Shown here: positions 33,339 through 34,330 of the stretch, piece by piece | Numbering within the stretch: the stretch's first letter is position 1 | Layout: each line of letters opens with the position of its first letter | From: Acidobacteriota bacterium | Lineage (GTDB): Bacteria > Acidobacteriota > UBA4820 > DSQY01 | Direction: 5' to 3' | NCBI GenBank assembly: GCA_037445535.1 | Contig: JBBIKI010000005.1 | Span: forward strand, 1 to 55,682 | Length of the DNA stretch: 55,682 bases | The notes under the pieces: model-generated | The model's input: only the letters and a program-made list of their open reading frames with translations | What the model was told of the DNA's origin: nothing | Databases searched by the model: none | Program-made: the position numbers and the translations under genes

Positions 33339-33527
33339 ATGAACGTCGACCGAGTTGTTCGCGCTATCGCCGGAACTTTCGTGCTCGTTTCCCTCGCCCT
33401 CGGGCACTGGGTCCATCCGTACTGGTACTTTTTTACGGCCTTCGTGGGTTTGAACCTCTTCCAGTCGGCCTTTACCAACTGGTGTCCCGTTATCACGATT
33501 TTGAAGAAAGCAGGTGTGCCTCAATGA
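33339..33527 (+). CDS. DUF2892 (YgaP-like) small membrane protein
   Basis: DRVVRAIAG...[25 protein letters not shown]. Confidence 0.88.
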
Positions 33528-33706
33528 CCTTGCATGATGCCCTCGCCATGGGAGCCATTCTCGTGGCGTGGTATCTCCTGAACCGGTTTCTCTTACCAAA
33601 AATGGGGGTGTCTACCTGAATGTCGCAATCCTGTGGGGTCGGGTCCGGCCCCGAGCATGATTCAAGGAGGAAGTCCGATGTCGGCAAACGTGATGGAGAT
33701 CAATGA
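33524..33706 (+). CDS. Unannotated single-pass membrane microprotein; 31 aa if TGA 33617-33619 is a stop, 60 aa candidate selenoprotein if it is read as Sec
   Basis: ATGA overlap with the DUF2892 stop. Sequence [31 protein letters not shown]-(TGA)[28 protein letters not shown]; SECIS-like hairpin at 33635-33652. Confidence 0.6.
33635..33652 (+). promoter_or_regulatory. Candidate bacterial SECIS element
   Basis: Stem GGGGTCG/CGGCCCC (7 bp, one G-U) with a GGTC loop starting 22 nt after the in-frame TGA. Confidence 0.55.
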
Positions 33707-34004
33707 CCAAACCTTCCAGGCGGAGGTTCTGAATTCTGCAACGCCCGTCCTCGTGGACTTCTGGGCTCCCTGGTGCGGCCCCTGCCGCATGGTCGGTCCC
33801 GTGGTTGAGGAGCTGGCCACTGAAATGGCCGGGAAGGTAAAATTCACCAAGGTAAACGTGGACGAAAGCCAGGCCTTTGCTGGCCAGTACGGTATCATGT
33901 CCATTCCTGCCCTCCTCCTGTTCAAGGGCGGGAAGGTCGTCCAGCAGCACGTGGGCGCCCTACCTAAGGCGGCACTTAAGAGCTTACTGGAAAAGGCCCT
34001 GTAA
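33678..34004 (+). CDS. trxA: Thioredoxin
   Basis: VLVDFWAPWCGPCR, IMSIP; AAGGAGG RBS before ATG 33678. Confidence 0.97.
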   Translation: MSANVMEINDQTFQAEVLNSATPVLVDFWAPWCGPCRMVGPVVEELATEMAGKVKFTKVNVDESQAFAGQYGIMSIPALLLFKGGKVVQQHVGALPKAALKSLLEKAL

Positions 34005-34034
34005 TATAAGGTGTTTTTCTTGGGGATATGACGT

Positions 34035-34256
34035 ATGCCCATCTACGAGTATCACTGCAATGCCTGCGGCGTTCGCTACGAGAAGATCGTCTTCTCGACG
34101 GCGGCTGCCGCCCCGTCTTGCCCGAGTTGCGGCTCTACTCAGGTGGAGAAACTCATCTCCGTTCCTGGAGGCATGAGCGGAGGATCAAGCTCAGGTCCCT
34201 CCTGCGGCGCCTCTAGCTCGGGGAGCTGCGGCTCTGGCTTTAGCTGAGCGGGCTGA
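34035..34256 (+). CDS. FmdB-family zinc-ribbon protein; ends at 34247 if TGA is a stop, or ...CGSGFS-U-AG* as a candidate selenoprotein
   Basis: MPIYEYHCNACG...CPSCGS...KLIS plus a Gly/Ser/Cys tail. TGA at 34245-47 is followed by GCG GGC TGA and a SECIS-like hairpin. Confidence 0.85.
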
Positions 34257-34260
34257 ACCC

Positions 34261-34277
34261 TGGTGCCGTGAGCACCA
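34261..34277 (+). promoter_or_regulatory. Candidate bacterial SECIS element
   Basis: Stem TGGTGC/GCACCA with a CGTGA loop (G then U at loop positions 2-3) starting 19 nt after TGA 34245-47; distinct from the downstream terminator. Confidence 0.55.
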
Positions 34278-34297
34278 ACGTCGTGTAACGCGCCCAC

Positions 34298-34330
34298 AAC
34301 GGGGAGCCTAAGAAGCTCCTCGTTTTTCTT
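34298..34330 (+). terminator. Intrinsic terminator of the suf/trx/fmdB transcript
   Basis: AACGGGGAGC-ctaagaa-GCTCCTCGTT followed by TTTCTT. Confidence 0.75.

Follow-up and report, generated by a model that had tools for sequence, protein, structure and literature searches.

Two candidate selenoprotein genes flanking a thioredoxin gene in an acidobacterial cassette downstream of the SUF operon

Selenoproteins of the FmdB family were predicted from the GOS ocean metagenome by Zhang and Gladyshev in 2008 (PMC2398784) and are treated also in other accounts (PMC9312934, PMC13188914). In these sources, selenocysteine (Sec, U) is placed within the CxxC knuckles of the protein, in forms given as CxxU, U/CxxU or UxxU with two Sec residues; the FmdB of PMC11227280 is the formylmethanofuran dehydrogenase subunit B, an unrelated protein. 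Here we analyze a cassette of four genes that follows sufS in a window of 55,682 nucleotides (nt) from an Acidobacteriota bacterium (the whole analyzed stretch of contig JBBIKI010000005.1, assembly GCA_037445535.1). On the evidence of its sequence and that of its relatives, the cassette almost certainly holds two genuine selenoprotein genes that use bacterial SelB/SECIS decoding (SECIS, Sec insertion sequence), one encoding a microprotein predicted to cross the membrane once by an N-terminal hydrophobic helix and the other an FmdB-family zinc ribbon. The latter resembles the published FmdB selenoproteins in its TIGR02605/PF09723 domain, its small size and its predicted Sec. It differs from them in that its knuckles (CNAC and CPSC) are all Cys and lack the knuckle Sec of the published form; only 1 to 3 residues separate the single predicted Sec from the C-terminus, and the candidate SECIS lies in the 3' untranslated region.

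A Sec residue close to the C-terminus is known from the families described by Haft and co-workers, namely UXX-star 1 and 2 (NF041114, NF041211), KCU-star (NF033934) and SaoC (PMC13188914), and the U-A-G-stop ending of the window FmdB protein is of this general kind; it is because the Sec lies so near the C-terminus that the SECIS would come after the stop codon. The motifs (GxGU, UxxT) and domains of those families nonetheless differ from the window protein. The FmdB domain model was the only NCBIfam model to match it at E <= 1, the UXX-star models NF041114 and NF041211 gave no match at that threshold, and U-x-x-stop is the sole formal feature shared. The same source describes the selenoprotein operons SAO and Tso, in which selenoprotein genes are clustered with a gene for a thioredoxin-fold protein (PMC13188914). 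The cassette is like them in joining several predicted selenoprotein genes to a thioredoxin-fold gene, a clustering that suggests a shared pathway, and unlike them in that its two selenoproteins would be very small and its thioredoxin is an ordinary TrxA. The TsoB model matched the thioredoxin domain only, scoring 26.5 bits where its cut-off is 805.

More distant parallels exist for the individual products. The Gly-Cys-Sec-Gly tail at the C-terminus of mammalian thioredoxin reductase forms a selenenylsulfide and passes electrons to thioredoxin. The FmdB protein may be compared with it by analogy, having what seems to be a flexible C-terminal tail that contains a Cys and, in the penultimate region, a predicted Sec, but it lacks the flavoprotein domain, shows no homology and sets Cys and Sec further apart (4 to 8 residues). 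The first cassette gene matches PF11127, like Escherichia coli YgaP and the stand-alone DUF2892 proteins; unlike YgaP, its 62-residue product has no rhodanese domain. Finally, with some 50-60 residues, one N-terminal helix and then a Cys-containing stretch, the microprotein is reminiscent of the FeoB-associated Cys-rich membrane proteins, which we take to be the family named in PF12669. It has no Pfam match, however, and the motif T-[U/C]-x4-C is particular to the microprotein family.

The features of the cassette are the following:

33339..33527, + strand: DUF2892/YgaP-like two-helix membrane protein, 62 amino acids (aa), by PF11127
33524..33706, + strand: microprotein, predicted selenoprotein, 60 aa on read-through, with N-terminal hydrophobic helix, Sec motif and tail
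33617..33619, + strand: predicted Sec codon (TGA) of the microprotein, in frame and kept in relatives
33635..33652, + strand: hairpin of the microprotein gene resembling a SECIS element, with loop GGUC on a 7-bp stem, 22 nt downstream of the UGA
33678..34004, + strand: thioredoxin with WCGPC, by TIGR01068
34035..34256, + strand: FmdB-family zinc ribbon, 73 aa on read-through, by PF09723/TIGR02605, with dual CxxC head and Gly/Ser/Cys-rich tail
34245..34247, + strand: TGA predicted to encode Sec in the FmdB gene, three codons ahead of the stop, followed by GCG GGC and the stop TGA at 34254-34256
34261..34277, + strand: hairpin of the FmdB gene resembling a SECIS element, with loop CGUGA on a 6-bp stem, 19 nt downstream of the UGA
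34298..34334 (stem 34298-34324), + strand: intrinsic terminator closing the operon, 10-pair stem and T run, by terminator scan

Profile matches identify three of these products: the DUF2892 protein scored 53.8 bits against PF11127 (cut-off 25.3, E 2.1e-14), the cassette thioredoxin 131.5 bits against TIGR01068 (equivalog cut-off 96.8) and the FmdB protein 59.4 bits against TIGR02605 (cut-off 31.3) and 57.4 against PF09723 (cut-off 34.4). An earlier note on this stretch had described four tightly packed, co-oriented genes after sufS that end at one terminator, had named their products and had located two in-frame TGA codons with hairpins 19 and 22 nt downstream. This observation is confirmed in every detail: coordinates and terminator scan agree on the layout, the above matches and the microprotein translation uphold the four identities, and the two hairpins were located at 34261-34277 and 33635-33652. 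The note had also failed to recognize the gene set as a described system. In agreement with it, the literature searched, in which the selenoprotein reviews were accessible in part, yielded no description of the microprotein, of FmdB proteins with Sec in the tail or of DUF2892/YgaP proteins together with selenoproteins. The novelty lies in a selenoprotein family, in where Sec is placed within a family already known and in a gene triad that recurs; the mode of decoding is ordinary.

Probable selenocysteine decoding in the microprotein and FmdB genes

The source genome (98.7% complete, 65% G+C) encodes the full Sec machinery, that is, selA, selB, selD and a tRNA-SeC with anticodon tca. Its selD gene has an in-frame TGA of its own (...GAG-U-ACK), and TGA is otherwise an ordinary stop, as in the sufS and DUF2892 genes. 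Among 41 related genomes, 36 have selA, and the sole genome with a microprotein TGA and no selA is only 64% complete. A further selenoprotein candidate of the source genome, on contig C12 (12062-12316), is a secreted thioredoxin-like protein with W-U-G-A-C. The hairpin loops of selD (GUG) and of this gene (CGUGAU) are similar to that of the FmdB gene, an anecdotal resemblance.

Relatives of the microprotein were sought at three scales. All 26 matches with E < 1e-3 in the 41 related genomes have the TGA. A scan with one narrow pattern over 185,579 species genomes, one per species, gave 178 confirmed stretches, from which 80 loci were kept; the Sec position in these loci, spread over many phyla, is TGA in 78 and Cys in two Leptospira-type records. 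A profile search of 1.84 billion cluster representatives (E <= 1e-3) produced 815 matches, and Cys occupies the Sec position in 114 of the best 150 of them. In the remainder of these best 150, the sequence ends exactly before that position in 19 cases, five carry other residues, and two missed by the tally pattern have Cys there when read by eye; ten carry Trp, which is most simply a TGA read as Trp by the gene caller. A second Cys at +5 is present in 120 of the best 150. The combination of TGA and Cys homologues, with the x4-C conserved downstream, is the classical Sec/Cys signature of a predicted selenoprotein. The record titles of the loci comprise Acidobacteriota, Geobacter/Desulfuromonadales, other former Deltaproteobacteria, Spirochaetota, Cytophagia, Armatimonadia, Anaerolineae, Planctomycetaceae, Myxococcota and Bacteriovoracaceae. 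In 101 sampled genomes from the phylum of one locus (L119), the microprotein was found in seven, always with TGA, and no genomic context of a Cys form was obtained there.

Translated copies share the sequence ...W[YF]xLNR[FYW][LI]LP[KR]xG[VI]xT-U-[MAT]xxxC, and across 16 diverse copies L24, P25, G28, T31 and U32 never vary, with the Cys at +5 nearly invariant (one locus, L036, lacks it). The codons after the TGA preserve Met-Ser-x-Ser-Cys and vary at the wobble position. No model of Pfam-A or NCBIfam 20.0 matched the Sec-form microprotein at E <= 1; six stand-alone Cys forms had no NCBIfam match and only chance-level Pfam matches below the cut-off, and relatives are named in databases 'hypothetical protein' or not at all, the cluster of one Cys form being unnamed. 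As judged from the alignments, the conserved portion of the protein is the predicted helix together with the membrane-adjacent motif LP-x2-G-x2-T-[U/C]-x4-C. Helix and T-U-x4-C would be the functional part, since the hairpin and the thioredoxin ribosome-binding site govern the sequence of the remaining tail. In several Acidobacteriota the peptide encoded over the hairpin changes from GVGSGP, the sequence of the window, to EVEFDP, and the hairpin is kept. Likewise, the thioredoxin Shine-Dalgarno sequence AAGGAGGA and start codon lie within the read-through tail, where AAGGAGGA encodes a conserved 'RRK'. The microprotein gene begins with an ATG (33524) that overlaps the DUF2892 stop as ATGA, and its read-through frame runs to a TGA at 33704-33706, the tail (33653-33706) overlapping the first 29 nt of the thioredoxin gene. 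Sec insertion would therefore send ribosomes across the thioredoxin start, and it is possible that thioredoxin translation is coupled to selenium supply. Two further observations concern the microprotein relatives: a protein of 592 aa (P0044) matches the profile in eight separate stretches, and in six delta-type loci (L076, L083, L090, L109, L110 and L118) the microprotein is immediately preceded by a co-oriented gene for a protein of some 447 aa. These proteins share 78-91% mutual identity, and the L076 copy had no Pfam match at 1e-5. Taken together, the evidence makes it very probable that the microprotein is a selenoprotein decoded by SelB and a SECIS element.

The tail of the window FmdB protein would read C-G-S-G-F-S-U-A-G-stop, with Sec as residue 71 of 73. 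The TGA is kept in all 24 FmdB loci of relatives, which read [G/K]F-[S/T/G/R]-U, then A-G, A-S, G-S or G, and then a stop. The Sec TGA is invariant; the stop that ends the frame is TGA in 20 loci, TAG or TAA in the other four. The two codons after the Sec TGA vary at the third base only (GCG/GCC/GCA and GGC/GGG/GGA/GGT), as translation through the TGA predicts. FmdB genes that adjoin the microprotein in more distant records have comparable endings: ...SGUGIKRRS in Anaerolineae, GFSUAS in Cytophagia, FTUG or FTUAV in Thermodesulfobacteriota, KFTU-stop in Syntrophobacteraceae and KFGUG in a Planctomycetota-type genome. The general form across loci is F-[S/T]-U plus zero to two residues and a stop; in most cases a Cys precedes the predicted Sec by 4 to 8 residues. 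Other FmdB proteins have tails such as ...SCAGCH, which are of low complexity and not alignable with confidence, and a 72-aa database form that stops at the TGA is named 'zinc ribbon domain-containing protein' in GenBank. We regard the FmdB product as a probable selenoprotein, with a confidence set slightly below that for the microprotein because none of 33 database relatives compared has Cys at its Sec position.

Both hairpins agree in position and loop with the published consensus for bacterial SECIS elements, a stem-loop 16-37 nt downstream of the UGA that carries G at loop position 1 or 2 (PMC13188914). The microprotein hairpin sits inside the reading frame and the FmdB hairpin lies wholly in the 3' untranslated region. 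Hairpins, defined as at least four contiguous pairs, were assessed sequence by sequence in 81 distinct microprotein and 31 distinct FmdB sequences. For the microprotein, 74 of the 81 have a hairpin, and 72 of these 74 place a G at loop position 1 or 2; loops begin 16-27 nt downstream of the UGA (median 23), and the mean folding z-score is -1.42 versus -0.01 for 243 random windows from the same loci. The FmdB figures are similar, with a hairpin in 30 of 31, the G in 29 of these 30 and loop starts of 14-28 nt (median 20), a few loops falling just under 16. Stems are entirely unlike between clades (GGGGUCG, UCCCCCG, GAUCUUUC, GCCGUG and others) and position is constant. No Rfam family reached its gathering score in the window, a permissive Rfam scan of 33500-34400 gave chance-level matches only (E > 1), and Rfam has no model matching the SECIS hairpins of either gene. 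Two Leptospira-type Cys-form loci (L060:2561-2608 and L069:2561-2608) retain a good hairpin at the SECIS position, which may be the leftover of a recent change from Sec to Cys.

Base pairing in both hairpins is accompanied by covariation. In a gapless set of 48 of the 80 distinct Sec-form microprotein sequences, chosen by eye for one register, 76.7% of cells are paired versus 48.4% in shuffles, with none of 500 shuffles as high, and 88 cells are changed on both sides versus 31 in shuffles. Sliding the partners one or more columns 3'-ward lowers pairing to 36-42%; a slide of -1 remains high because some loops have four bases rather than three. In 22 in-family FmdB rows, pairing reaches 87.1% versus 70.1% in shuffles (again 0 of 500 as high), slid pairings give 24-56%, and five of the six pairs are changed on both sides. 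RNAalifold found no consensus for all 32 distinct FmdB downstream stretches because clades differ in spacing. The conservation of TGA codons, following residues and covarying hairpins in relatives of both families thus bears out the view, put forward in the earlier note, that two such UGA and SECIS sites go beyond chance. Of the checks suggested there, Sec machinery, TGA retention, conservation past the TGA and hairpin conservation all favour both sites, and the microprotein has Cys homologues in addition.

Genomic neighbourhoods of the two genes

The full cassette, in the order DUF2892, microprotein, thioredoxin and fmdB, is present in 18 of the 80 loci, all of them labelled Acidobacteriota or its classes, and sufS lies upstream in 13 of these 18. 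The loci taken from the related genomes, which for the most part coincide with this set, agree with it. None of the 62 non-cassette loci has sufS, and DUF2892 is found in one, a Planctomycetaceae locus where it lies about 1.5 kb off; a DUF2892 match was recorded for the Acidobacteriota-labelled locus L039. It is mostly in Acidobacteriota that the microprotein is linked to SUF and DUF2892. In an alignment of 21 cassette copies, the DUF2892 protein has an invariant Cys-Pro near its C-terminal end, placed at the end of the second helix, and the WCGPC active site of the thioredoxin is invariant in 20. A second DUF2892 gene of the source genome lies on contig C33 (22617-22796, 67.1 bits).

Outside these full cassettes, the microprotein adjoins an FmdB gene with the tail Sec codon (FmdB-U) in nine of the 62 loci. 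The order is thioredoxin, fmdB(U), microprotein in L073 and L125, and microprotein, thioredoxin in L123. Cys-form microproteins fused to thioredoxin were found as P0137 and P0098, the end of the latter looking frameshifted; a search for longer fused forms of one Cys homologue returned one protein. In three Cytophagia-type loci (L080, L098 and L100), microprotein and FmdB(U) are followed on the same strand by a pyridine-nucleotide disulfide oxidoreductase of 456-468 aa with Pyr_redox_2 and dimerisation domains. Neighbour surveys of about 60 loci outside Acidobacteriota gave no consistent partner family: the top upstream families were histidine-kinase domains (6/60) and chorismate mutase (4/60), the top downstream ones glyoxalase (7/59) and Pyr_redox_2 (3/59). 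Within the 41 related genomes, FmdB-U occurs only where the microprotein is also present, a co-occurrence on which we make no statistical claim because the genomes are kin; G030 and G038 have no FmdB-U adjoining the microprotein, and G038 has an FmdB gene on another contig.

In the window, the cassette follows a SUF operon with these features:

27166-27194, + strand: promoter-like site before the SUF operon, by promoter scan
27205..33270, + strand: upstream SUF operon, with Rrf2 regulator, sufC, sufB, sufD, NifU_N/SufU-like, Rieske and sufS genes, by Pfam matches
32011-33270, + strand: sufS, by Aminotran_5

The corresponding Pfam matches were Rrf2, ABC_tran, SUFBD_core (twice), NifU_N, Rieske and Aminotran_5 (E 2.5e-144). 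A gap of 68 nt separates sufS from the DUF2892 gene and all four cassette genes are on the + strand. The scan placed no terminator-like site between sufS and the cassette, the single strong one of the region being that at 34298-34324 with its T run. Two features of the surroundings are given for completeness. A Rieske [2Fe-2S] protein of 105 aa (31697-32014) is encoded between the SufU-like gene and sufS, whose start it overlaps, an unusual place for such a gene among SUF operons. A 573-aa open frame on the - strand (25493-27214) diverges from the Rrf2/SUF promoter region.

A proposed thioredoxin-coupled module and its alternatives

The comparisons show two predicted Sec-decoding genes, each with a nearby Cys (U-x4-C in the microprotein, C-x4-8-U in the FmdB tail), that are persistently linked to thioredoxin. 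The best functional reading, in our view, is a thioredoxin-coupled selenol/thiol module, and for genuine selenoprotein genes and such a relay jointly our confidence is moderate. The Sec/Cys pair of each protein could close into a selenenylsulfide, and the thioredoxin would keep or cycle both pairs in the reduced state; the thioredoxin is proposed as the reductant because it is encoded between both genes, is adjacent in other phyla and is fused to the Cys-form microprotein. In such a module, the tail of the FmdB protein would have a part comparable to that of the mobile Cys-Sec tail in mammalian thioredoxin reductase. The end of the second helix of E. coli YgaP is cytoplasmic. By the positive-inside rule, the microprotein would have its short acidic N-terminus outside and its NR...PK...T-U-x4-C stretch at the cytoplasmic face, and neither the zinc-ribbon protein nor the thioredoxin has a signal peptide. 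It is on account of this topology, of the absent signal peptides and of the position of the DUF2892 Cys-Pro that the relay may be placed at the cytoplasmic face of the inner membrane. In this Acidobacteriota lineage, the module would have recruited DUF2892 with its invariant Cys-Pro and become co-transcribed with the SUF operon. Possible final substrates include oxidants, persulfide or selenium species and soft metals. The broadest form of the proposal, in which microprotein, Sec-tailed FmdB and thioredoxin constitute an unrecognised and widespread three-part selenol relay at the bacterial inner membrane, with two new selenoprotein families, is advanced as a tentative suggestion, more doubtful than its narrower counterpart.

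Several points weigh against the thioredoxin-coupled module. Most loci outside Acidobacteriota have the microprotein with neither thioredoxin nor FmdB, amid heterogeneous neighbours, and in most of those of Desulfuromonadales type it has only unrelated genes around it. In the source genome, the cassette thioredoxin (130.8 bits) alone exceeds the TIGR01068 cut-off, the next best gene scoring 57.5 bits, and the argument for a dedicated partner is weakened by its being the only canonical thioredoxin: the housekeeping TrxA of the lineage appears to be encoded inside the cassette, and its position could reflect housekeeping gene order instead of a dedicated partnership. Hence, the claim of the earlier note that thioredoxin recycles two Sec partners is compatible with the recurring neighbourhood of microprotein, FmdB-Sec and thioredoxin and with the two fusions, but it loses ground in that this thioredoxin is no dedicated paralogue. 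Selenenylsulfide chemistry and membrane topology are argued rather than computed. At the level of decoding, none of 33 database relatives of the FmdB protein has Cys at the Sec position and 22 of them end right before the TGA (...GFS, GGFS or GFT), so that this gene is without the classical pairing of Sec and Cys homologues; selection by eye of the microprotein covariation set is a further reservation.

Among the alternatives, the two proteins could be real selenoproteins that serve in the binding or traffic of a soft metal or metalloid (Cu, Hg, Zn, Fe, As, Se) and not in a redox relay. The Sec/Cys pairs, together with the Cys-rich tail of FmdB, would then supply membrane metal ligands, with the thioredoxin a mere neighbour. 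The layout of a helix and then a Cys-rich stretch, which recalls the FeoB-associated Cys-rich membrane proteins (with no match to a hidden Markov model), would fit such a role, as would some metal-related neighbours elsewhere: a CsoR-type repressor, MerR, DUF364/DUF4213 'heavy-metal chelation', an OEP efflux protein, NikR_C (3/59) and FeoB_N (2/59). In addition, the Sec of the C-terminal UXX-star and Sao families may be a metal ligand, according to a 2026 review (PMC13188914). Each of these neighbours, however, occurs in one to three of about 60 loci with no steady transporter partner, whereas thioredoxin and FmdB-U are the partners that recur and thioredoxin fusions exist. We consider this explanation unlikely.

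A sulfur or selenium transfer relay for SufS and Fe-S assembly, with the Sec residues and the DUF2892 Cys accepting persulfide or perselenide from SufS, seems less probable still. The arrangement of the window speaks for it, the cassette being co-oriented with the SUF operon and 68 nt after sufS with no intervening terminator, and so does the recurrence of sufS upstream in 13 of the 18 full cassettes; besides, the rhodanese YgaP has DUF2892 as its membrane domain, and enzymes of the SufS type are able to cleave selenocysteine. Yet five of the 18 have no sufS upstream, the 62 other loci offer no sufS and a single DUF2892 at some 1.5 kb, and the core that crosses phyla is formed by microprotein, FmdB-U and thioredoxin, not by SUF. 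The possible link to Fe-S assembly that had been suggested for this locus is thus weak: sufS accompanies most of the full cassettes and none of the 62 other loci.

That one or both TGAs are plain stops, their conservation stemming from RNA elements or from a leader peptide coupling thioredoxin to upstream translation, is very improbable: public annotation does end both genes at the TGA (19 microprotein representatives and the 72-aa GenBank form of FmdB), the microprotein read-through overlaps the thioredoxin start by 29 nt and the 33 FmdB relatives offer no Cys homologue, but this explanation has to contend with Cys at the microprotein position in 114 of the best 150 of 815 representatives, with an in-frame Cys at +5 conserved amid wobble variation, with FmdB Ala/Gly codons that vary at the wobble only and a final stop that varies where the first TGA does not, with hairpins that follow the SECIS consensus in position and loop, and with the occurrence of the microprotein without thioredoxin in most phyla.

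Implications for selenoprotein families

Catalogues of selenoproteins are still assembled one family at a time. The 2026 review puts the number of families or subfamilies at 119 (PMC13188914). The microprotein family has neither model nor name, and gene callers cut its gene at the TGA; two small models could let annotation pipelines recover both genes. For FmdB proteins, the present results shift the predicted Sec from the zinc knuckle to the tail. To our knowledge, the function of FmdB tails has never been explained, and the relay, if true, would give a first functional handle on the low-complexity tails of these zinc-ribbon proteins. More generally, the cross-phylum triad with thioredoxin provides a concrete biochemical hypothesis.

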